From: a virus
Strand: one strand, 5' to 3'
DNA length: 64,000 bases
Virus record (IMG/VR): IMGVR_UViG_3300044618_000713
Coordinates: 1 to 64,000 of that record
The position numbers and the translations under genes were made by a program. The notes beneath the pieces are model-generated. The model was not told where the DNA came from. It made no database searches and saw only the letters and a list, made by a program, of their open reading frames with translations. Positions within the stretch are counted from its first letter, which is position 1. Every line of letters starts with the position of its first letter. Below, piece by piece: positions 20,082 to 39,240 of the stretch.

Positions 20082-20339
20082 TTAGCACTTCCACCGTCTC
20101 ATTGAGGCTTTGGCGCGGCTGCCTTCGCCTGCTTTGGCTGCAATTGGTCGCATACGCTTACAAAACGACGTTTTTCGCGCCTGTTCTGCATCATTACGCG
20201 GGTTTGGCGCGGGCGGCTTCAACTTGCTGCCCGTCGCCTTGTTGTACTTGGCACGTCCCTTGGCCGTCAGCCCGGCGCCCTTGCTGACGGGCAGCTTCTC
20301 ACCGCGTCCTACCGACAAAGATACGCCTTTGCGCGCCAT
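20082..20339 (-). CDS. Small basic protein (DUF6321-like)
   Basis: GLTAKGRAKYN...GS.LK...RK.SFC.RM...RRWKC; TGATG coupling to terL. Confidence 0.7.
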   Translation of the reverse strand: MARKGVSLSVGRGEKLPVSKGAGLTAKGRAKYNKATGSKLKPPAPNPRNDAEQARKTSFCKRMRPIAAKAGEGSRAKASMRRWKC

Positions 20340-21865
20340 CAGGAACCTAGCCAAGAGGTTGAAACACTTGACTGACCATAAGCCTTGCGCGGCGTCCTGT
20401 CAACGCGCTCGCCTCTGGAGGCCACGGGGAACGCGAATGTAACGGCTATCGCGTCTGCGGCGTCGGGGCTTGCGAGCCCACGGGCTTTCATCTCCTTCTT
20501 GCCTTCGAGGAAGATCGTGCCCTTGCTGTCCGGCTTCATCAGCGGCGAGATCAGGTCCGTCTTCAGCACCCGGTCGGGTGGGATCGACGCGGTCTTCAAC
20601 CATTCCCGCATGGCTCCCCACATCTCGGCCCGCTTGTTGCCGTACATGACCGGCTTGCTGCTCTTGGACCCAAAGTTCACCCCCTTGACCTTGTACCGCT
20701 GCTCCTTGAGCCGGTCCACGACCCCCGCGCCCAGCCCGCCCTCGTCGATCACCACCATCGTCGGCTGGAACTCTTCCATCGCCTCGATGACGCGACCGAC
20801 TACTTCCATGGTGTCGTCACCGCGGTAGCGCTTGATTGCCACGATGTCTCGGCCTTGCCGTACCGCGATAACTGTAGCGTCGGCACCGAAGCGTGCCGGG
20901 TCCACGCCGAGGACCACTGGAGCCGAGGCGTCCTTATAGCGGGGTCGTCCCATGGCGTCGTCGACGAGATGGATCGGGATGAACTGGTCATCTCCAGCCG
21001 AGGGAAACTCACCGTAGACCTCAACATGCGCCTGAACGCTGTCAGGCCCGTATTCGAGGATGATCTGCTCATAGACCGCCTTGTCCGTTCCTTCGACCGT
21101 GCGGGCGTCCACGGTCTTGTTGCGCCAGAAGTCCCGCTTGGCGTTGAACGCCTCGTAGAAGTAGCCCGTGTTGCGGCGGGGGTTGGAGAACGCCATCCAG
21201 AAGCGGTTGGGCGTGTTCTCGGTGAAGAAGCCCGCTGCCACCTGCCAGATGCTGTCGGAGATACCGCTGGCTTCGTCGAACACCAGCATTACACCATCGA
21301 AGTTGTGCACGCCCGCGTAGGCGTCCGGGTTCTCTTCCGACCACAGTCGCCCCTCGACGCCCCAGTAGCGCGTGCCCTTCTTCAGGTCGCGCTCGACCAG
21401 CTCGGCCAGCCACTTGGCGGGCATGACGCGGGTAGCCGAGACCTCGAACCAGTGACTGTTCAACGCGAGCGCCAGCCACTTGGTGATCTCGGCCCAGGTG
21501 ATCGACCGGAGCTGCGTCTCGGAGTTGGCCGACACGATGGTGCTGGACCCGATCCGGGTCGTCAGCATCCAGATGATGAGCCACGAGACGAGGGCCGACT
21601 TGCCGATGCCGCGGCCGGAAGACACGGCCATGCGGAGCACGTCGAAGTCCACCTTGCCGCTGTTCTGCCTGATGTGCTCGGCCAGATCGCGCAGCACCTC
21701 GCGCTGCCACTTGCGCGGGCCAGAGAAGTGCTCCAGCGGCGTGCCGGGCTGCCCCCACGGAAACAGCCACATCACGAACTTGAGCGGGTCGTCCTTGAGC
21801 GACGGCGCCCACAGGGACGCCATCAGGTTCTGCTCGTCCTCAGCGCTGTAGCGCGTGGTCTGCAT
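20339..21865 (-). CDS. terL: Terminase large subunit
   Basis: Walker A SGRGIGKS, Walker B VFDEASG, nuclease GVDPARFGAD and SPDAADA. Confidence 0.95.
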   Translation of the reverse strand: MQTTRYSAEDEQNLMASLWAPSLKDDPLKFVMWLFPWGQPGTPLEHFSGPRKWQREVLRDLAEHIRQNSGKVDFDVLRMAVSSGRGIGKSALVSWLIIWMLTTRIGSSTIVSANSETQLRSITWAEITKWLALALNSHWFEVSATRVMPAKWLAELVERDLKKGTRYWGVEGRLWSEENPDAYAGVHNFDGVMLVFDEASGISDSIWQVAAGFFTENTPNRFWMAFSNPRRNTGYFYEAFNAKRDFWRNKTVDARTVEGTDKAVYEQIILEYGPDSVQAHVEVYGEFPSAGDDQFIPIHLVDDAMGRPRYKDASAPVVLGVDPARFGADATVIAVRQGRDIVAIKRYRGDDTMEVVGRVIEAMEEFQPTMVVIDEGGLGAGVVDRLKEQRYKVKGVNFGSKSSKPVMYGNKRAEMWGAMREWLKTASIPPDRVLKTDLISPLMKPDSKGTIFLEGKKEMKARGLASPDAADAIAVTFAFPVASRGERVDRTPRKAYGQSSVSTSWLGS

Positions 21866-23540: not shown

Positions 23541-23569
23541 AGAAAACGGCGGCCGTTTGGCCGCCGTTT
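23538..23569 (-). terminator. Rho-independent terminator
   Basis: AAACGGCGGCC-AAAC-GGCCGCCGTTT followed by TCTTTT on the minus strand. Confidence 0.75.
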
Positions 23570-23752: not shown

Positions 23753-23787
23753 GGTCCGTTTCCTTGTGTTGTGTTGACAATACGTGG

Positions 23788-23859
23788 ACACTAGCACGAA
23801 AGAAAAAGTGGTGTCAACAAATATTTGTTGTTGACATTATGTGAGCAGTTCGCTATTCT
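23788..23859. promoter_or_regulatory. Back-to-back sigma70 promoters with a 16-bp palindrome between them
   Basis: Plus TTGACA(23831)-N17-TATTCT; minus TTGACA(23817)-N18-TAGTGT; CAACAAATATTTGTTG at 23815-23830. Confidence 0.75.
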
Positions 23860-23885
23860 GCGTCTATCAACCACGGAGAACGGAA

Positions 23886-24029
23886 ATGGAAACGACAATC
23901 ACAACGCGGGCCGGAAACAAAATCACAGGAATCTTCACTACCTACACAGACGACACGGACACGGTTAAGATCACAAAGGGAAAATGGAAAGGCAAGCACA
24001 TACTGATCAAGAAAACGGACCGCGCCTAG
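23886..24029 (+). CDS. Hypothetical early protein (47 aa)
   Basis: GGAG RBS; first gene after the promoter; TAG stop adjoins the repeated hairpin. Confidence 0.6.
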   Translation: METTITTRAGNKITGIFTTYTDDTDTVKITKGKWKGKHILIKKTDRA

Positions 24030-24032
24030 GGC

Positions 24033-24077
24033 GCGGTCTAGCAGGCGGCCGCCATGCGCGGCCGCTCACTAGACCGC
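24033..24077 (+). repeat. Structured intergenic element, copy 1
   Basis: GCGGTCTAG-CAG-GCGGCCGC-CATGC-GCGGCCGC-TCA-CTAGACCGC. Confidence 0.8.
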
Positions 24078-24105
24078 ACCACAAACACGGAAGGGAAACA
24101 CCACG

Positions 24106-24348
24106 ATGACACACGAAGAGTATCCTGGCGAAAACGCGCTTTTTGACGCGGAATATGCCGACTATCAGCGCCGTGCGCGCAACATTGACGACTGGGCGCG
24201 CGCCCAGTACGCGGCCGGAAAGATGTCCGAAGCTCAGATCGAGCGCGCCGTCGAGCGCATGTTTGACGCGCTTGACGACGCGTATATGCCGTCGCGTCAT
24301 GCCGGGTTTACCGGCGCGCAATCGCTTTCTGATTTTATGGGAGAATAA
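24106..24348 (+). CDS. Hypothetical early protein (80 aa)
   Basis: GGAAGGGA RBS; acidic, helical. Confidence 0.65.
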   Translation: MTHEEYPGENALFDAEYADYQRRARNIDDWARAQYAAGKMSEAQIERAVERMFDALDDAYMPSRHAGFTGAQSLSDFMGE

Positions 24349-24350
24349 CA

Positions 24351-24515
24351 ATGGAAAGCTACTGGTACGCATACGGGTACACGTCGCGCGTCAAAGCCGA
24401 AATTGCCCTAGAGATTGCCTACAATCGCGGCGACGTCCTGCCCGGCGAGAACCCCCGCGTTGAACCGTACCGCACACGCGACGGCGCCAAAGCCTATGGT
24501 ATCCGCGTTAACTAG
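24351..24515 (+). CDS. Hypothetical early protein (54 aa, not in ORF track)
   Basis: GGAG RBS; MESYWYAYGYTSRVKAEIALE...YGIRVN; stop lies inside hairpin copy 2. Confidence 0.65.
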   Translation: MESYWYAYGYTSRVKAEIALEIAYNRGDVLPGENPRVEPYRTRDGAKAYGIRVN

Positions 24516-24574
24516 GCTCTAGCAGACGGGCGGCAAGCCGCCCGTTCACTAGATCCTAGTCTAAACTCAACCAA
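24511..24574 (+). repeat. Structured intergenic element, copy 2
   Basis: ACTAGG-C-TCTAG-CAG-ACGGGCGGC-AA-GCCGCCCGT-TCA-CTAGA-T-CCTAGT-CTAAACTCAACCAA. Confidence 0.85.
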
Positions 24575-24591
24575 GGAAGGGAAACGACACT

Positions 24592-24834
24592 ATGAAAAAC
24601 AGCGAAATGAAGGCCAATCGCTTTCTGACATGGCACAAGGCGCGCCGCCGCGTCGCCTACATCCAGTCCAATCTTAATCTCGGCCGCACTGTGTACCTTT
24701 GCACCATGACCAAGGCCACCAAGCTCACCTCGAAGCACATTGGCATGGTGAAGGCGGCAAAGAACGGCGCGTTCGTCCAGAGCGGAAAGAGCTGGGTTTG
24801 CATTGATGGCTGCAGCATCAAGGTTGCCGCCTAG
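24592..24834 (+). CDS. Hypothetical early protein (80 aa, basic)
   Basis: AAGGAAGG RBS; stop lies inside hairpin copy 3. Confidence 0.65.
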   Translation: MKNSEMKANRFLTWHKARRRVAYIQSNLNLGRTVYLCTMTKATKLTSKHIGMVKAAKNGAFVQSGKSWVCIDGCSIKVAA

Positions 24835-24894
24835 GCACTGGCATGACGGCGCCGCGGGCGCCGTCTCACTAGTCCCTAGTCTAAACTCAACCAA
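24831..24894 (+). repeat. Structured intergenic element, copy 3
   Basis: CTAGG-C-ACTGG-CAT-GACGGCGCC-GCG-GGCGCCGTC-TCA-CTAGT-C-CCTAGT-CTAAACTCAACCAA. Confidence 0.85.
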
Positions 24895-24908
24895 AAGAGG
24901 ATACTACA

Positions 24909-25520
24909 ATGCTAATCGCAACTGACATTCTCAAGGCCGCGCTGTTTTGCGCGTCATCTGAGGAGAGCCGCTACTATCTCCGCGGCGTGCACCTGTCCAC
25001 GTCCGGTCACCTGGTGACAACGGACGGTCACAGGATGTTTGTCGCCCGGCTAAATGATCGCCCGGCTGCCGACGTCATCGTGCCCTATGCCGACGTCGCC
25101 GCGGCGCTCAAGCTCGCAGGCGCGCGCTGCAAAGATATAGAGGTGACGGTTGACGTGACCGGAAGCGCGCTCCCGCAAGTGACCGGCAAAATCCACTCGA
25201 TTGCCTATACGCCCGTTGACGGTACTTTTCCCGATTGGCGCCGCGTCGTGCCGACGGGCGAGGAACTGCCGTCCGGCAAGCCGGACGACGCGCCCGGTAA
25301 CGTCCACTTCAATCACGCCTATGTCGGCGATTTGGCAAAGATGGGGAAACTGCTAGGCGGCTCGTCTATGTTGCACCCTGTTAGCGCCAGCCATCCCTGC
25401 CTCGTGACGTTCGGCGAGCGCGAAGATTGCCTTGCCGTGCTCATGCCAGTGCGCCGCGGCTCCGGCATACAAGGCGAAGCCGGGTTCGGCTCGCACGTCA
25501 AGCGCCGCGTGATCGGCTGA
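24909..25520 (+). CDS. DNA polymerase III beta-clamp-like protein (short)
   Basis: AS.EESRYYLRGVH...VTTDGHRM...VDGTFPDWRRVVP...AVLMPVR, matching DnaN motifs. Confidence 0.8.
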   Translation: MLIATDILKAALFCASSEESRYYLRGVHLSTSGHLVTTDGHRMFVARLNDRPAADVIVPYADVAAALKLAGARCKDIEVTVDVTGSALPQVTGKIHSIAYTPVDGTFPDWRRVVPTGEELPSGKPDDAPGNVHFNHAYVGDLAKMGKLLGGSSMLHPVSASHPCLVTFGEREDCLAVLMPVRRGSGIQGEAGFGSHVKRRVIG

Positions 25521-25530
25521 CAACTAAAGC

Positions 25531-25560
25531 TTGACGGGCGGCACATGCCGCCCGTATACT
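25531..25560 (+). promoter_or_regulatory. Sigma70-like promoter with a hairpin spacer
   Basis: TTGACG-N18-TATACT; ACGGGCGGCA-CA-TGCCGCCCGT inverted repeat. Confidence 0.6.
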
Positions 25561-25593
25561 TTCCACGCAATGTCAACTAATGGAGACTACACT

Positions 25594-27351: not shown

Positions 27352-27407
27352 TCATGCTGCTGGCCTTGGTGCTGGCGGCCCTTGTGGCCGCCTGGCTCGA
27401 CCTCTAG
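27348..27407 (+). CDS. 19-aa hydrophobic peptide
   Basis: MIMLLALVLAALVAAWLDL; ATGA-coupled; stop shares a CTAG with the primase stop. Confidence 0.35.
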   Translation: MIMLLALVLAALVAAWLDL

Positions 27408-29710
27408 GACTTCACCACTGTAAGCCCCGGACCTGCGGCGTGCTCGACCATGCGCCGCAGGTCGCTCTTTGAGTAGGTGCGCACCATGTCCTCGCGCGCC
27501 CATATGTTCTTCTTGGTCTGGAACTCGGCCGATTTGACGGCGCCGAGGTCGATCCAGCCCGCTTCCTTGAGGCCATGCAGCAGCGCCGCCTGGGGCACCT
27601 TGACGCCGCCGGGCGCGCCCTGCTGCAATGTGCTGCAAAGCTTGTGGAACGGCGAGGCGATGACGCCCGCGGCAAACTCGGCCGACGGCTTGTGCACCTG
27701 CTCGATGACGTAGCTTTCCGCCATGCTGCGGCCCGTCTCGATAAGACGCGTCCGGTAGTCCGTCCACGGCGGCATGGCTGCCGGGTTAAACGCCGACACA
27801 TCGCGGTCGAGCAGCCACCGGCCCACGGCCTGGAGCCCGCCTTGCTTCTTGTACCACGCCCACAGCGCGACCGCGTCGGCCTTCTCCATGCGCGGCGCGT
27901 GCGACCACAGGCAGAACCAGCGCCTGTCTTGCGTTGGCAGCGACAGCGGCACGGGATCGTTGGTGAACGCCAGCACAAACAGGCGGTTGACCATGTCGTA
28001 GGGGTGCAGGCCCTTGCGCTCGATGGTCAGCGTGTCGGGCGGCGCCGCGATGATCGGCTTGAGCTTGTTGGACAGCGAGCGGCGCTGCGCGGCTTCCGGT
28101 TCCTTGAGCTCGTTAAGGATCAGGATCTCGCTCTCCAGCGCGTAGCCCCAGCGCGAATTGATCCCGTCAGCGTCCACCAGCCCGCGGTTGCGCAGGTCCG
28201 GCCCGCACACGGACCAGATGAAGGGGAACCAGAACGTGTCCTTGCCGCAGCCCTCGTCGCCGCCATGCAGCACGGCGTGATTGATCTTGATCTCCGGGTG
28301 CTGGAGCTTGTAGGCCATGACATCAAGGACGTGCTCGCGCTCGACCAGATCGGGGATCAGCAGCTCGGCATGGGCCAGCCATGGCGCGACGTCGCCCGGC
28401 GTGACGCCGGACAGGTCCGGCCGCGCGTTGACCCAGCGGTTGCCGTAGATCTCCCCGTCGCGCGCCACGAGGACGCTATCGCCCGCAGCGTAGGTCAGCC
28501 CGCGCAACACCCGCGCGCCCGCGCCCTGGCGGTTCTCGTCGTAACAGACGGACGCCTCGACCTTGCGTTGCGTGTGGATGGACTTGCAATCGACGTGTCT
28601 AAACACGGCGTTGAACGCGCCGCGCGTCATCTCCCGCCGGTCGATCATGTCGAAATAGGCGTCATCCTCGACGATGTACGCGAAGCGGCTGAACCACTCG
28701 CGCTTGGTCAAGCGGCCCAGCTCCTTGCGGTCAACCTCGGCGATGACCTCGGCAGCCGCGTCAGGGAACGCCTCGGTCGGCTGGATCGTCGCGGCCACCA
28801 TGGCCATGCGCTCGGCCACCAGCTCCTCGCGGAAGCCCGCCTGCACCGTCGGCCCGCCCTGCTCGGCCACCCATGCAAGGAAGGCGTTGCTGTCGAGGTG
28901 CTCGCAGTGGGAGTGGTAGCAGCAGAACGCCCGGTTGACGGGCGAGTAACGCCCCTCGATCTGGCCGTCCGTGTGCGCGGCATGGTTCGGGCAGACGACG
29001 CCGCACCAGCCCTCGCGGTTAACCTGGGAGAGCACCAGCCCCTGCTCGGAGAGCCACTTGAGCACGCTGTCGGAGCCCGTGTCGCGCAGGCGGATGACCT
29101 GCGGCCCGGCGCTGTCGGCGGGCGCTGGCGTGACGTCCAGACCCTCGCAGATGGCGGCAAGCGTGTATTCGCGCTCAGGGTGGAACTCGACCAACCGCGC
29201 CGGGAACAGGTCACGCCCCGGCTTGAGGTTGGGCGAGCCCGGCAAGCGGCAGTTGCGCACTGCGTTGGTGGCGCCGGGGTCCGTGTAGCCTGCGGCTGCG
29301 ATGGCCGTGATGGCCGCGACGAACTCGCCCTTGGTCGGCTGCTCCTTGAAAGCGTAGCCCCACTGGCAGTTGCCGGGCGACGTCTCGACGATCCACGTCG
29401 GCGGCACGGGCGGCACCTTGGACTTGGTGCCGATGTCGTCCAGCATCATGAACAGGACGAACTCGCAGTTGGCCGCCGAGGCCGACGGCTTGCCGTCGAA
29501 GCGGTCGATAATGAACGAGCCCGTGTTGATGAACCAGCTCTCGCCGTCCCTGCGCGCACGCGACGGCAGGAAGGCGGGCCACGTGAACTTGAGGGTGCCG
29601 TCGCGGTGCGTGACCTGCTGCCCGTCGTACATGACGGGCTTCTGGCGCACGATCAGGGCTGTTTCGCCGTCCGGCGCAAGGCCGGTTAGATATTCTAGAA
29701 GGTCTGACAT
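27404..29710 (-). CDS. Primase-helicase (RepB-type primase plus SF3/DUF5906 helicase)
   Basis: LDDIG...WIVETSPGNCQWGY; CPNH..H zinc site; GGDEGCGKD Walker A; start at MSDLL. Confidence 0.88.
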   Translation of the reverse strand: MSDLLEYLTGLAPDGETALIVRQKPVMYDGQQVTHRDGTLKFTWPAFLPSRARRDGESWFINTGSFIIDRFDGKPSASAANCEFVLFMMLDDIGTKSKVPPVPPTWIVETSPGNCQWGYAFKEQPTKGEFVAAITAIAAAGYTDPGATNAVRNCRLPGSPNLKPGRDLFPARLVEFHPEREYTLAAICEGLDVTPAPADSAGPQVIRLRDTGSDSVLKWLSEQGLVLSQVNREGWCGVVCPNHAAHTDGQIEGRYSPVNRAFCCYHSHCEHLDSNAFLAWVAEQGGPTVQAGFREELVAERMAMVAATIQPTEAFPDAAAEVIAEVDRKELGRLTKREWFSRFAYIVEDDAYFDMIDRREMTRGAFNAVFRHVDCKSIHTQRKVEASVCYDENRQGAGARVLRGLTYAAGDSVLVARDGEIYGNRWVNARPDLSGVTPGDVAPWLAHAELLIPDLVEREHVLDVMAYKLQHPEIKINHAVLHGGDEGCGKDTFWFPFIWSVCGPDLRNRGLVDADGINSRWGYALESEILILNELKEPEAAQRRSLSNKLKPIIAAPPDTLTIERKGLHPYDMVNRLFVLAFTNDPVPLSLPTQDRRWFCLWSHAPRMEKADAVALWAWYKKQGGLQAVGRWLLDRDVSAFNPAAMPPWTDYRTRLIETGRSMAESYVIEQVHKPSAEFAAGVIASPFHKLCSTLQQGAPGGVKVPQAALLHGLKEAGWIDLGAVKSAEFQTKKNIWAREDMVRTYSKSDLRRMVEHAAGPGLTVVKS

Positions 29711-29730
29711 TGTTTCCTCGTTCTTATGGG

Positions 29731-29922
29731 TCAGTCGTCGTTTTTGAGCGGCAGTACAGAGTACCTTGTTGGCTCGTGGGTAACAAAATCCCACGATATT
29801 GTGCGGCTGCTGGCGGGCCAGGCATTCAAGGCCGCCGCAATCGCCCCGCCTACGTCGCCAATCGCGGCGTACCCACTCGCGGCTTCGATTGCTTCGTCGG
29901 GTATCTGGTCACGTTTGATCAC
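29731..29922 (-). CDS. Hypothetical protein (QIPDE...NAWP family)
   Basis: GAGG RBS; paralogous to 37363-37590 and 37577-37786. Confidence 0.6.
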   Translation of the reverse strand: MIKRDQIPDEAIEAASGYAAIGDVGGAIAAALNAWPASSRTISWDFVTHEPTRYSVLPLKNDD

Positions 29923-30287: not shown

Positions 30288-32270
30288 TCACTTGCCGTAC
30301 CGTTGCATCACCTTGCCGCTGGCACCCAATGGTAGCCCCTCGGCCCACGCGGGAGGGGTGATCATAACAGCCTGCATCGCGGCTGCCAATTCTTCTGATT
30401 TTTCTGTATCAACCTCAGCTACAATTTCGTCGTGGACGTGCAGCACGACCTCGACGCCCGCGGCGTCCAGACCGCGCAGCGCCTCGCGCAGGATGTCGTT
30501 GGCGGTGGCCTGCACGATGTTCTCGCAGGCGAGCCCGCGCCAGAGCCGCGCCCGTGGCCACTCCTTGGCGTCTGCCGCAGGCTTCCACGACGCCTTGGCG
30601 TAGGACACGCCGTCCTCCTCGAACCGCGCGTAGGGGTAGCACAGCACGCGGCCCGACGGCAGCGCGTACCAAAGGTGGTCGCCTTGCTTCATGTACTGCA
30701 CGCGGCCCGCCTTGAACACCTCGCCGGGGTTGCGGATGGCGCGGGTATACGCCTGCTCCAGATCGGCCCAGAACGGCACGGCCCACGGGTTGGCGCGGCG
30801 CCACAGATCGACCGTGCGCCTCGCCTCGCTCTCGGGCATGTGGACGCCGTAGACGCGGCCCATGGCACTGAACGCACCCACGCCGCCGCCGAACCCGCAG
30901 GCCAGCACGGCCACCTTGCCAAGCTGCCGCTGCTCGTCAGTGACGGCCGTCTCCTCGACGTTGAACATGCGCGCGGCGACGGCAACGTAGATGTCGCGGC
31001 CCTCGCGGAACACGTCCAGCGTCTCCTCGCCGTCCATCGACAGCCACGGCGTGACGCGGGCCTCGATCTGGGCATAGTCGAACACGGCGAAGACCTTGCC
31101 CTCGGCCGGGATCAACGCCGGACGCAGCATCGACTTCAGCACGTCGGTGACGCGCTTGCCGAACTCGGGCACGATCTGGTGCCCGCGCACGAGCGCCTGG
31201 CGGGCTAGTTCAGGCTCTTTGGCACATTTTCGGGGGAAGTTGTGGACTTGGAGACCATAACTTGATGCGCGGCCCGTAGCGCTTCCCCCAGCAAACACAA
31301 ACGCACCCCGGACGCGACTGTCGAGATCATCTGAGAGCGATGCAGCTCGCTCAAACTTCGCCACCGACGATGCCCAGAGATCGTCCGCGCACTGCACCAC
31401 TTCAGCGACTTCCGCAGGGACTTCATCAGGGTTTTCCTCCGCAAGGGTTAATACGCTCGCGCGCACGGTCTTGTCCAAGCATCTGTGCGCCCGGTCATTT
31501 TTCATAAGCGTCATAAGTTTTCGGGCTTCAGGACCGACACGATCCCAAACCCAATCTTTCATTCGTACGCTGCGCACGCTCACAATTTCGCGCTGCGTTA
31601 TCTCGCAAACCAGATTTTGTATCTCAATCGTCTCGGCGGCGGCATACTTGACGGCTGCCTGCGCCAGCGGGCGGTCGAGGCGCACGCCGCGGTCGTTGAT
31701 GCGCTCGTTGACGTGGTAGTCGAGCAGCTCCTCGTCGGTCAGCCCGCGCATGGCCTTGGAGAAGGCCCGCATGGCGCGCACGTCCTGCTCGCAGTACTCG
31801 ATCATCTCCTGCATCAGCCCGGCGTCCTCGCGGAACGTGCCGTTGGCCTGCGGGATGGACAGCGCACGCACCAGTGCTGCGCCGCGGTGATCCTTGCGCA
31901 TCCCTGCGCCCGCGAAGCGGCCCACGTCCTCCAGAGAGCCTGGCGCGCAGTTGGCGCGGGCCTGCGTCGCGGTGCAGTAGAACTGCGTCAGCGCGGGCTC
32001 CGGCACCTTGAAATCAGGGCAGATCACATACCAGAACAACAGCCGCTCGAAGGCGGCGTTGTGCGCGCGGATCTGTACGCCGGAAAGAATTGCGGCCGAA
32101 ACTTTCTGTGGAAAGGGTTGCTCAGGCGTCCACGTCTGCACGTCCTCGTCATCGAAGGCGTAGGACATGCACAGCACCTCGGTGCTGGGGTCCTGCATAT
32201 AGTTGTAGACGCCACGCACCTTCAGATCGCAGCGGCTGCGGGTCTCGAAGTCAAGCCAGAGTATTGTCAT
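30288..32270 (-). CDS. polA: DNA polymerase family A (3'-5' exonuclease plus polymerase)
   Basis: LDFET, HNAAFE, YCEQDV exonuclease motifs; DYAQIEAR, RQLGKVAVLACGFG and VHDE polymerase motifs. Confidence 0.93.
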   Translation of the reverse strand: MTILWLDFETRSRCDLKVRGVYNYMQDPSTEVLCMSYAFDDEDVQTWTPEQPFPQKVSAAILSGVQIRAHNAAFERLLFWYVICPDFKVPEPALTQFYCTATQARANCAPGSLEDVGRFAGAGMRKDHRGAALVRALSIPQANGTFREDAGLMQEMIEYCEQDVRAMRAFSKAMRGLTDEELLDYHVNERINDRGVRLDRPLAQAAVKYAAAETIEIQNLVCEITQREIVSVRSVRMKDWVWDRVGPEARKLMTLMKNDRAHRCLDKTVRASVLTLAEENPDEVPAEVAEVVQCADDLWASSVAKFERAASLSDDLDSRVRGAFVFAGGSATGRASSYGLQVHNFPRKCAKEPELARQALVRGHQIVPEFGKRVTDVLKSMLRPALIPAEGKVFAVFDYAQIEARVTPWLSMDGEETLDVFREGRDIYVAVAARMFNVEETAVTDEQRQLGKVAVLACGFGGGVGAFSAMGRVYGVHMPESEARRTVDLWRRANPWAVPFWADLEQAYTRAIRNPGEVFKAGRVQYMKQGDHLWYALPSGRVLCYPYARFEEDGVSYAKASWKPAADAKEWPRARLWRGLACENIVQATANDILREALRGLDAAGVEVVLHVHDEIVAEVDTEKSEELAAAMQAVMITPPAWAEGLPLGASGKVMQRYGK

Positions 32271-37370: not shown

Positions 37371-37590
37371 GCTTGAACAGATACCGGAGGAAGTCCTCCG
37401 CGCGTTGTGTGCCAGCATGGGCTGCGAGTGGGCCATGCAAGACAAAGAGGACCAGATAATCATTCGCCGTCACATCACCGCCGCTATCAATGCGTGGCCT
37501 AATATAGATAAGATTTATAGGTCTGAGGACGAGAAACTATTCACCATCATCCTCCCCCTGACACAGGAGAACAACAATGATCAAGGCTGA
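37363..37590 (+). CDS. Hypothetical protein (QIPEE...AAINAWP)
   Basis: AAGGAG RBS; paralog family. Confidence 0.65.
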   Translation: MIELEQIPEEVLRALCASMGCEWAMQDKEDQIIIRRHITAAINAWPNIDKIYRSEDEKLFTIILPLTQENNNDQG

Positions 37591-37786
37591 ACAGATACCG
37601 GATGAGGTGGTGGAGGCGGCTTTATGGGCTTACAACTACGCATTCAGAAATTGTTACACGACAGAAGAACAGGACATTGCTATCGCCATCGCCGCCGCTA
37701 TCAATGCGTGGCCGGGGATAGAAATCCACACTGACGGCACTGATGACTGGGTTGAACTTACCCTGCCGCAGGAGCCACGCACATGA
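37577..37786 (+). CDS. Hypothetical protein (QIPDE...AAINAWP)
   Basis: AGGAG RBS; tandem paralog. Confidence 0.65.
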   Translation: MIKAEQIPDEVVEAALWAYNYAFRNCYTTEEQDIAIAIAAAINAWPGIEIHTDGTDDWVELTLPQEPRT

Positions 37787-38046
37787 CCACCACACCAGAG
37801 CAGATAGAGGCTGCGCTTGCTGCGTTCGCGCTCGCATCTGGCCTTGGCATTTTCCCCAACGACGAAAAGGACGAGGAGTGGCGTGAGGACTTAGTTAACG
37901 GTATGCGCGCCGCCATCGACACCATGCGCCCCGTCATCCGTGCCGAGGCGCTGGAGGAAGCGGAGGATGTCGTTGGAGAAGTTGGTGATTGCGCGGAAGT
38001 TGGCGCTTATATAGCCGTTATCAGAGCGTTGAAGGAAAAGCCATGA
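37783..38046 (+). CDS. Hypothetical protein (87 aa)
   Basis: AGGAG RBS; ATGA couplings. Confidence 0.6.
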   Translation: MTTTPEQIEAALAAFALASGLGIFPNDEKDEEWREDLVNGMRAAIDTMRPVIRAEALEEAEDVVGEVGDCAEVGAYIAVIRALKEKP

Positions 38047-38324
38047 CTGACATTCTAGACGAACGCGAGAAGACACACGGCGATTATTATCAAGTGTCTA
38101 TGATGGCACAGGAACTGAAGGACGCCATGCGGCGCGGCAAGAAATGGAGAATACTAGACGATATGCAGCGCGAGACGCTGGAGATGATCGCCAGCAAGAT
38201 TAGCCGCATCTTGTCAGGTAATCCGCACGAGTCCGACCATTGGCGTGACATAGCTGGCTACGCCACGTTGATCGAGCGGTGGCTCACACCACCGGCTGAC
38301 CTCGAAACCAAGCCTGACCGTTGA
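38043..38324 (+). CDS. DUF6378-like protein (full length)
   Basis: MTDILDEREKTHGDY...DHWRDIAGYATL. Confidence 0.75.
   Translation: MTDILDEREKTHGDYYQVSMMAQELKDAMRRGKKWRILDDMQRETLEMIASKISRILSGNPHESDHWRDIAGYATLIERWLTPPADLETKPDR
38075..38284 (+). repeat. Direct repeat, copy 2
   Basis: Matches 1-210 as above. Confidence 0.97.
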
Positions 38325-39240
38325 TCACGCGGCAGAACTCCGGTTCCAGCAACATGCCGCTAGGTGCGAAATGCAACACCACAAAACCCTGTGACCAGTT
38401 CACGGGGTTGTCCTCCGCATAAGCGAACTTATCGTTATCAGGTCCGTAATCCGAAAGCGTTCCGCACTCCACGCCCCATCGAAGGCCATTGTAATCCGCA
38501 AACATAGTAGCCTGGAGCCGATGCGTGTGGCCGGTCACAATCGATTTGCCGCTCTTCAATGTGTTGTTATAGGCCCCATGAACGCCTTGGTGAATGCGAT
38601 GCTTTACAACCGTATGCTCATTGAGCCATAGGCTTGTGCAGAACTGCCACGCAGGAAAATGGTCTGCGATGTCAAATCCTTGGACCTGTACATATTCCGG
38701 CGCTGCTTGAGCCAGCCTCGACATGAAGCGGTTGTCGTGATTGCCATCGGTCCACATGAGATAGCAGCCCGGAGGTGCATAAGCCTCGATCTCTGCGTGA
38801 CGTTCCTTGACGGCTTCTAGTTCCTCGGCCACGCTCGGCGTCTGCACACGAGCGCCTGGAGGATGACGACTGATCTTTGCACCGTCGAAGCTGTCGCCGT
38901 TCATGATGACCATCGACGGCTGCAAGTCCTTGATGATCTCGATCATGGCTGCGAAAGCCTTGCTTCGCTCACCCGGCCAGAAATGCCCATCGCTGCCGAT
39001 GATGACGGGGCCGACAACATTTTCTTTTAGCGCGCGGAAACCTTTTGTCGGCACCTCAATCTTGATCCGCTGGGCGGGCTGCGAGATCGTGTTCAGAATG
39101 ATTCCATGCTTGCGCTCGAGGCTATCCCGTCGAGCGTTAACGCCTCGCAGGTTGAGGCCCAATTCTTTGGATACGGCGGACGGTGAGCCTAGACGCTTCC
39201 ATGCGTCAATGAACTCTTGATCGGAGTACCTCTTAGTCAT
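38284..39240 (-). CDS. Calcineurin-like metallophosphoesterase with N-terminal HTH
   Basis: SDGH, NGDSFD, DGNHD and TGHTHR motifs. Confidence 0.85.
   Translation of the reverse strand: MTKRYSDQEFIDAWKRLGSPSAVSKELGLNLRGVNARRDSLERKHGIILNTISQPAQRIKIEVPTKGFRALKENVVGPVIIGSDGHFWPGERSKAFAAMIEIIKDLQPSMVIMNGDSFDGAKISRHPPGARVQTPSVAEELEAVKERHAEIEAYAPPGCYLMWTDGNHDNRFMSRLAQAAPEYVQVQGFDIADHFPAWQFCTSLWLNEHTVVKHRIHQGVHGAYNNTLKSGKSIVTGHTHRLQATMFADYNGLRWGVECGTLSDYGPDNDKFAYAEDNPVNWSQGFVVLHFAPSGMLLEPEFCRVINGQAWFRGQPVV

Follow-up and report, generated by a model that had tools for sequence, protein, structure and literature searches.

The first 64 kb of a 75,554-bp IMG/VR virus record, which constitute the window analyzed here, contain three copies of a structured intergenic element belonging to a real, well-supported and previously uncatalogued family that is specific to one clade of uncultured aquatic phages. 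The 72 distinct copies of the family are spread over about 80 contigs of viral or metagenome origin, and the carriers are uncultured freshwater phages of approximately 38 kb that are podovirus-like and possess P22-type structural genes. The function that we favor for these elements, with a probability of roughly 40%, is that of processing or stability sites in the sense RNA of the early message that would resemble the sites recognized by RNase III.

Judging from the sequence, the three hairpins (H1, H2 and H3) appear to lie in a short rightward operon headed by a predicted sigma-70-like early promoter at 23831-23859 on the plus strand (TTGACA, a 17-nt spacer and TATTCT; 10 of 12 matches to the consensus). 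The -35 box of this promoter overlaps a 22-bp palindrome (23813-23836) that looks like an operator and, together with three TTGACA motifs, is part of a divergent control region at 23760-23860; a canonical minus-strand terminator is located at 23544-23569. The operon consists of four small ORFs of unknown function followed by a sliding-clamp-like gene, further small ORFs and the gene for a DnaA-C-domain protein. The first small ORF (23886-24029, plus strand; 47 aa from the ATG; family f14) terminates with a TAG codon just 5′ of the lower stem of H1, and two tightly coupled ORFs of 80 aa and 54 aa (24106-24515, plus strand), arranged as stop, 2 nt, ATG, occupy the interval between H1 and H2. Another 80-aa ORF (24592-24834, plus strand), which is missing from the relatives L017 and L004, separates H2 from H3, and the clamp-like gene (DNA_pol3_beta_2; 24909-25520, plus strand) comes after H3. 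The operon is flanked on the left by leftward genes for P22-type packaging and structural proteins (terminase at 20339-21865, portal and coat) and on the right by leftward replication genes, namely those for a primase-helicase (27404-29794) and PolA (30288-32270). The primase-helicase, a protein of 796 aa encoded on the minus strand, contains a DUF5906 domain. Neither a phage RNA polymerase nor an integrase or a transposase was found among the ORFs that were scanned for domains, several of the ORFs being still unannotated. The record is about twice as long as its relatives, all of which are 35-39 kb, and near 38 kb (window about 37,500-38,500) its GC content, elsewhere about 0.60-0.65, declines to about 0.53; the record may represent two genomes joined, in which case its ‘direct terminal repeat’ label might not hold.

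All three hairpins fold (RNAfold) with a lower stem below a small internal loop and a GC upper stem of 9 bp above it; against shuffled sequences, their z-scores range from -4.1 to -5.4. H1 (24026-24084, plus strand; 74.8 bits) consists of a 9-bp outer stem ending with CTAG, a CA/CA loop, a 9-bp upper stem and a 5-nt terminal loop. H2 (24507-24564, plus strand; 70.9 bits) has the same CA/CA loop and an upper stem of 9 bp capped by a 4-nt loop, and the TAG stop codon at 24513-24515 is paired inside its lower stem. H3 (24826-24884, plus strand; 63.1 bits) is a variant copy with a CTGG/CTAG middle stem, a 3×3 internal loop (CAT/TCA), a 9-bp upper stem topped by a 3-nt loop, and the stop codon within the lower stem. 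When the entire 75.5-kb record was scanned for generic two-stem structures, only these three were recovered with the CA...CA and CTAG features. The initial annotation of this region had proposed three elements, each beginning at or beside a TAG stop codon, and all three are present where it placed them, the stop codon being at or in the 5′ arm; the folds also bear out its contention that the inner stems differ between copies and yet all pair. The compensatory change that it pointed out in copy 3 is likewise genuine, with ACTGG/CTAGT differing from the TCTAG/CTAGA of copy 2 by one exchange of T-A for A-T and one G·T, and the identical sequence seen after copies 2 and 3 is an exact 14-mer, CTAAACTCAACCAA. 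The CA(G/T)/TCA internal loop of the initial annotation exists but is better described in copies 1 and 2 as a 2×2 CA/CA loop closed by a G·U pair, the 3×3 form being that of copy 3; similarly, the outer and inner stems stand, but the helix runs further outward via a second stem that includes the stop codon. Both copies of the 14-mer belong to the leaders of the succeeding genes, the first to an A/C-rich leader that extends to the Shine-Dalgarno region of the next gene (24561-24591, plus strand) and the second to the leader containing the Shine-Dalgarno site of the clamp gene (24881-24908, plus strand). In the folds of H1-H3, the Shine-Dalgarno site is left unsequestered, and no T-run follows any of the three.

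The distribution of the family was assessed with 56 viral loci that were gathered through the clamp protein, without use of the motif, and in these relatives the same element occupies the same place with many different inner stems. Specifically, it is found 20-35 nt before the clamp start in loci with a clamp at least about 47% identical, with rare exceptions, whereas more distant clamp-bearing relatives (28-41% identity) have other content upstream and no element. A covariance model constructed from 18 copies recovered further variants outside its training set, and the homologous structures that the initial annotation had suggested looking for in related phages now number 72 distinct copies. 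A strict pattern produced 36 matches in viral contigs and 43 in metagenome contigs, compared to 0 in 185,579 prokaryote genomes; this pattern fixes CTAG and TCACTAG, and the invariance of those letters was accordingly judged on the clamp-anchored set only. Five complete or nearly complete relatives (35-39 kb) carry one or two copies each, always at this locus. Overall, there are 1-3 copies per genome of about 38 kb, all within the early operon, a distribution on which a dispersed repeat or MITE was rejected, and in 28 of the 37 locus maps a hairpin lies directly upstream of the clamp gene. The covariance model, run with filters off, detected no element in the nearest GenBank phages by terminase (MW202483 and DSL-LC05), and the nearest phages with similar replication genes are also without it. 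Among the close relatives, L030 has the leader and no hairpin before the clamp gene, so the element is dispensable there. A permissive Rfam scan yielded only chance matches to miRNAs and sRNAs, far below the gathering threshold, and a DNA search of the phage collection with the region as the query gave no match.

The 72 distinct copies share a highly regular anatomy. The lower stem comprises about six pairs, with the upstream stop codon and three bases forming its 5′ arm, and the 3′ arm varies with the stop codon such that TAG, TAA and TGA each have matching partners. This stem is separated by a 1×1 mismatch, mostly C opposite A, from a middle stem in which CUAG is paired with CUAG; in L014, the middle stem is UCAA/UUGA, with three of the four pairs changed compensatorily. 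The 5′ side of the internal loop is CA in 38 copies, CUA in 14, AC in 11, AUA in 5 and CC in 2, while the 3′ side is CA in 38 of the 40 copies of the clamp-anchored set, which is free of pattern bias; the 3′ side as a whole (T, CA, CTAG) is nearly invariant. The loop is open on the plus strand in 71 of the 72 copies. The upper stem, represented by 18 different sequences, is always 9 bp long. Its closing pair on the plus strand is G·U in 68 copies, A-U in 3 and G-C in 1, a standard pair being formed in 71/72, and of the 576 cells at pairs 2-9, 571 are Watson-Crick, 4 are G·U and 1 is a mismatch; the upper stem is free of bulges, and its pairing amounts to 99.7%. The top loop varies from 3 to 7 nt and shows no conserved sequence. 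Taken together, the stacked helix spans 7+4+2+9 positions (about 22, or roughly two turns), and this length is kept in the 72 copies.

Double changes were detected in 12 of the 20 pairs, and none of 500 shuffles reached the observed covariation, in agreement with the original view of a structured signal: intrastrand pairing is what selection maintains, and the element is not a chance palindrome. The element of L016 forms an uninterrupted helix of about 21 bp in which the internal loop is closed, and this copy, together with the compensatory middle stem of L014, indicates that helix length is better kept than sequence. Furthermore, the spacing between the two boxes tracks the length of the top loop and thus varies by 4 nt, which fits a hairpin but not a site for a protein that binds duplex DNA.

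The relationship of the element to the adjacent genes is equally regular. Every copy points in the same direction as the flanking ORFs; in most of them, the last base of the stop codon falls at model position 9, and the next start codon is located 12-35 nt past the model in all copies but one. The TAG codon terminates 26 of the 35 ORFs that are followed by a hairpin vs 39 of the 178 other ORFs of the same loci, so the stop codon behaves as a part of the module. The leader that comes after the hairpin is 79% A+C (C 37%, A 42%, G 6%, T 15%) and is succeeded by a strong Shine-Dalgarno site and the start codon. In L018 (3954-3990), as well as in L019, the leader 3′ of the hairpin holds about five tandem CCTAA pentamers, whereas other leaders contain one or two copies of this pentamer. 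The elements resemble intrinsic (Rho-independent) terminators in that a GC-rich hairpin is located directly 3′ of a stop codon, but differ in the lack of a U-tract, the much longer helix and the conserved internal loop. An ordinary intrinsic terminator was rejected, as it had been in the initial annotation, given the absence of a U-tract and the low T content of the leader; ordinary terminators composed of a hairpin and a T-run are present elsewhere in the same phage.

Comparison of the 37 locus gene maps vindicates the suggestion that the flanking genes vary in a cassette fashion: the small genes around the elements are highly variable, mosaic breakpoints lie inside the conserved boxes, and the elements are borders of exchangeable early-gene cassettes of the PeSL kind. 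Two gene families that are joined stop-to-start in one phage can have an element between them in another, and the genes homologous to the ORF pair at 24106-24515 have a hairpin between them in some relatives. In L017, collinearity with the window extends to the 3′ box of H1 and returns in the 3′ box of H3, so that 24076-24859 is lacking; the single element of this relative consists of H1 up to the box joined to the flank of H3, with most of the lower-stem pairing lost. Cores and flanks are reassorted likewise in L004 and L005. No clean target duplication was identified at the elements, and the comparison of the junctions points to mosaic recombination that reaches the coding ends. The exchange may take place by simple microhomology recombination or may be aided by the structure. 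Family f2 (window 24106-24348 and its homologues) is itself mosaic, with two unrelated N-terminal halves and two unrelated C-terminal ends that occur in varied combinations, which implies that recombination also cuts inside these genes.

In the PeSL cassettes of T4-type phages, the junctions of indels and replacements similarly fall within the motifs, resulting in chimeric motifs (PMC2839356, PMC4122927). The elements described here share with PeSLs a conserved composite intergenic motif with a GC stem-loop that flanks small orphan early genes in a plastic region, and the presence inside this motif of insertion, deletion and replacement junctions between related genomes. Unlike PeSLs, however, the hairpin element has no promoter, its helix is longer, consists of three parts and includes an internal loop that is conserved, each genome has 1-3 copies as opposed to about 50, and the carriers are small podovirus-like phages with P22-type structural genes rather than T4-like phages. 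A hidden promoter in the element was rejected because none was found by a scan in or after H1-H3 and the box spacing is variable. A promoter with a hairpin is nevertheless encountered in the same operon, immediately after the clamp gene, where a companion module (25531-25560, plus strand) consists of a predicted sigma-70-like promoter (TTGACG, 18 nt, TATACT) with a 9-bp hairpin in the spacer, the stem of which is that of H2. This post-clamp module is present in all 26 distinct sequences examined, with TTGACR and TATACT separated by a 16-18-nt spacer that forms a 7-9-bp hairpin with several, covarying stem sequences. TTCCAC comes after TATACT in this region (window 25525-25572), and the module is found in the same place in L003-L028, L068, L078, L080, L085 and L089. 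A stem-loop that separates the -35 from the -10 box of a sigma-70-like promoter is also the arrangement of one described PeSL subclass, and the companion module may be evolutionarily related to the promoter-less hairpin element.

The closest functional parallel appears to be provided by the early region of bacteriophage T7, a likeness to which the initial annotation had drawn attention. When folded with the same tool, the T7 intergenic regions 0.3 to 1.3 form a lower stem of 7-8 pairs, an internal loop and an upper stem of 9-13 pairs, without a U-tract, and in the 0.4/0.5 region, the stop codon of gene 0.4 is located within the lower stem of the next hairpin. We take these hairpins to be the RNase III sites of T7, the T7 record that was used carrying no such annotation; the names and approximate positions of the sites (R0.3, R0.5, R1, R1.1 and R1.3) reportedly go back to Dunn and Studier in 1983. 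RNase III cleavage is proven for the T7 early sites. In geometry, the elements of the aquatic phages are like the folded T7 hairpins: they are situated between genes of an early operon that, judging from its promoter, would be transcribed by the host polymerase, and consist of a lower stem, an internal loop and an upper stem that jointly make about two turns, with no U-tract, an upstream stop codon that may sit in the lower stem and the ribosome site of the next gene thereafter. The sequences are unrelated, though, and the internal loops of T7 are bigger and lack symmetry, at about 4 by 5-6 nt as against 2-3 by 2 nt in these phages. Moreover, T7 upper stems are conserved in sequence, with G·U pairs that favor the sense strand, whereas the aquatic phages have variable stems and greater stability on the complementary strand. 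The parallel with T7 holds for the layout but not for the sense strand being the better-folding one, and the elements are candidate sites of cleavage, as opposed to the proven sites of T7.

Under the scenario that we favor, host RNA polymerase would start near 23831 and produce a single polycistronic transcript in which the RNA after each small gene would form three stacked stems that make up a quasi-continuous helix, broken by the 1×1 mismatch and the small A/C internal loop. Because the stop codon sits in the lower stem, completion of the helix would require that no ribosome be terminating at this codon. An endonuclease of the RNase III type, specific for double strands, would recognize the two-turn helix, with the internal loop and the adjoining weak G·U pair probably restricting or tuning the cut. 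Such a cut would separate the small early messages from the message for the clamp and replication proteins, leaving the upstream RNA with the GC-rich upper hairpin as a 3′ cap and the downstream RNA with an unstructured A/C-rich leader and a strong ribosome site. The reactivity of RNase III substrates is known to depend on a length of two helical turns, on short helices that stack coaxially and on internal loops, which confine the cut to a single strand and leave a protective 3′ hairpin (PMC1540722). The enzyme is inhibited by GC pairs next to the scissile bond, in E. coli at certain positions of the proximal box (PMC1540722), and the weak pair beside the loop, which is G·U or A-U and almost never G-C, fits this rule. 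On this reading, the active species would be the RNA, and it would undergo cleavage. Several observations count against this reading, namely the greater stability of the complementary strand, the GC-rich remainder of the upper stem, which is at odds with the preferences of E. coli RNase III, and the absence of the hairpin from L030. The same applies to the near-invariant 3′ box TCACTAG, which suggests sequence-specific recognition, something that RNase III does not need.

The strand asymmetry is considerable: folded as RNA, the complementary strand is more stable in 68 of the 72 copies, by about 5 kcal/mol (mean of -32.5 vs -27.2 kcal/mol), and the same holds with DNA parameters in the four copies for which these were used. 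For five T7 early intergenic regions subjected to the same treatment, the sense strand is the more stable one in 5/5. This reversal may stem from the unpaired positions of the plus strand being A or C only, so that their complements, G and U, form wobble pairs. The architecture itself is consistent on the sense strand, with a standard closing pair, an open loop, the gene-following orientation and the fixed register relative to the stop codon and the ribosome site. On the complementary strand, an A·C mismatch takes the place of the closing pair in 68 of the 72 copies, and only about half of the copies show a paired loop. The asymmetry could nevertheless overturn the RNA reading. Minus-strand terminators do not account for the complementary hairpins because no T-run comes after them, save for an unrelated small hairpin at 24018-24038. 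This 9-bp minus-strand hairpin, which has the stop codon of the first early ORF in its loop and a T-run after it, is terminator-like; its 3′ arm and the lower stem of H1 overlap so that the two folds are mutually exclusive, and its sequence is also present in L004 and L017.

If RNA is indeed the active form, it need not be cut. The elements could be passive barriers or attenuators that shield the upstream message from 3′ exonucleases or cause a partial stop or pause of the polymerase between the immediate-early small genes and those for the clamp and replication, with no specific endonuclease involved, which would in effect reduce a PeSL-type cassette to its stem-loop half, the promoter being left out. 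Although on balance we consider this unlikely, it deserves the most serious attention among the alternatives. The upper stem is a very stable GC hairpin, the elements lie within the first transcription unit, mostly just before the clamp gene, and a very similar 9-bp hairpin is part of the promoter after the clamp gene in the same phages. Furthermore, when a PeSL stem-loop of T4-type phages was assayed in a reporter, expression fell to about the same degree as with a strong terminator (PMC2839356). A simple barrier, however, could do without a conserved internal loop and the G·U pair, as well as without the CUAG stem and a fixed total length, and the lack of a U-tract, the 15% T in the leader and the canonical terminators present elsewhere in the same phage also count against this option.

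The asymmetry between the two sides of the internal loop raises the somewhat more doubtful prospect of an operator for a sequence-specific RNA-binding protein, of phage or host origin, that would recognize the CUAG helix together with the loop's 3′ strand. The protein could be an antitermination factor, a repressor of translation of the gene downstream, or RNase III itself, bound but not cutting. In favor of this prospect, the 3′ side is nearly invariant, also in the set that was not selected by the pattern, next to a variable 5′ loop side, the element is confined to one phage clade, and RNase III is capable of binding some bulged helices without cleaving them (PMC1540722). Yet no candidate protein visibly co-varies with the element, the neighboring small genes differing between phages; L014 and L016 alter the box while keeping the helix; and the Shine-Dalgarno site is not sequestered.

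The possibility that DNA, in a single-stranded or cruciform form and probably as the complementary strand, is the active species, whether in attC-like recombination or in primase priming at a signal similar to the ssi of RSF1010, appears improbable, and the same low probability applies to its recombinase-independent version, in which the phage replication or recombination machinery would recognize the element, cassettes would be exchanged between phages and the RNA fold would be a by-product. Besides the stability of the complementary strand under both RNA and DNA parameters, the breakpoints between genomes inside the boxes are compatible with a DNA function. The resemblance to integron attC sites, which the initial annotation had offered as one option, is confined to general organization: the location right after the cassette ORF in a fixed orientation, conservation of structure over sequence, conserved outer boxes with a variable paired center and an unpaired spacer, and hybrid sites after exchange. 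Membership in the attC class was rejected on every feature tested. The RYYYAAC/GTTRRRY R-box cores are missing, the outer boxes being CTAG-based and the 3′ GTTCACT failing at the R positions; there are no extrahelical bases like those of an L box, the upper stem being perfect; neither an attI nor a cassette promoter was found, nor, among the ORFs scanned for domains, an integrase or a transposase; and no copies were detected in bacterial genomes. The RepB′ protein of RSF1010 is a primase that needs hairpin-shaped initiation signals. The six nucleotides that this protein recognizes lie 5′ of a hairpin of 21 nt (PMC8567376, a secondary source for ssi), and on the complementary strand of the elements an invariant box is likewise located 5′ of a 21-nt hairpin. 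This box, however, is base-paired, with a partner that covaries in L014, and is not a free tail. In favor of priming, the primase-helicase has a weak N-terminal RepB_primase match (E 5e-5; 23.7 bits, just below the Pfam cut-off of 24.3); no PDB sequence match to RepB′ was obtained. The A·C mismatch and inconsistently paired loop of the complementary hairpin and the absence of the element from the nearest phages with similar replication genes count against a DNA role, and such a role would leave unexplained the strict register relative to the stop codon and the ribosome site and the co-orientation with transcription. Finally, a functionless selfish or relic palindrome, spread by recombination and kept as harmless between genes, would be in line with the low and variable copy number, the absence from L030 and the lost lower-stem pairing of the fresh recombinant L017, but is hardly credible given that the compensatory changes in both stems, the fixed 9-bp length and the conserved open loop attest to purifying selection on structure, and that the position before the clamp gene is conserved across clamps down to about 47% identity.

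Whatever the mechanism, these elements make the exchange of small early genes visible at nucleotide resolution, with crossovers inside two 6-7-nt boxes of a structured intergenic module, and carry the PeSL concept beyond T4-like myoviruses to small podovirus-like phages that are unrelated to them. If the RNase III-type reading is true, a clade of uncultured aquatic phages would have reached T7-like cutting of early messages with a different, very regular RNA motif. This motif of about 50 nt, defined by 72 natural variants, would be a directly testable substrate for the RNase III of non-enteric hosts and might find use as an insulator part.
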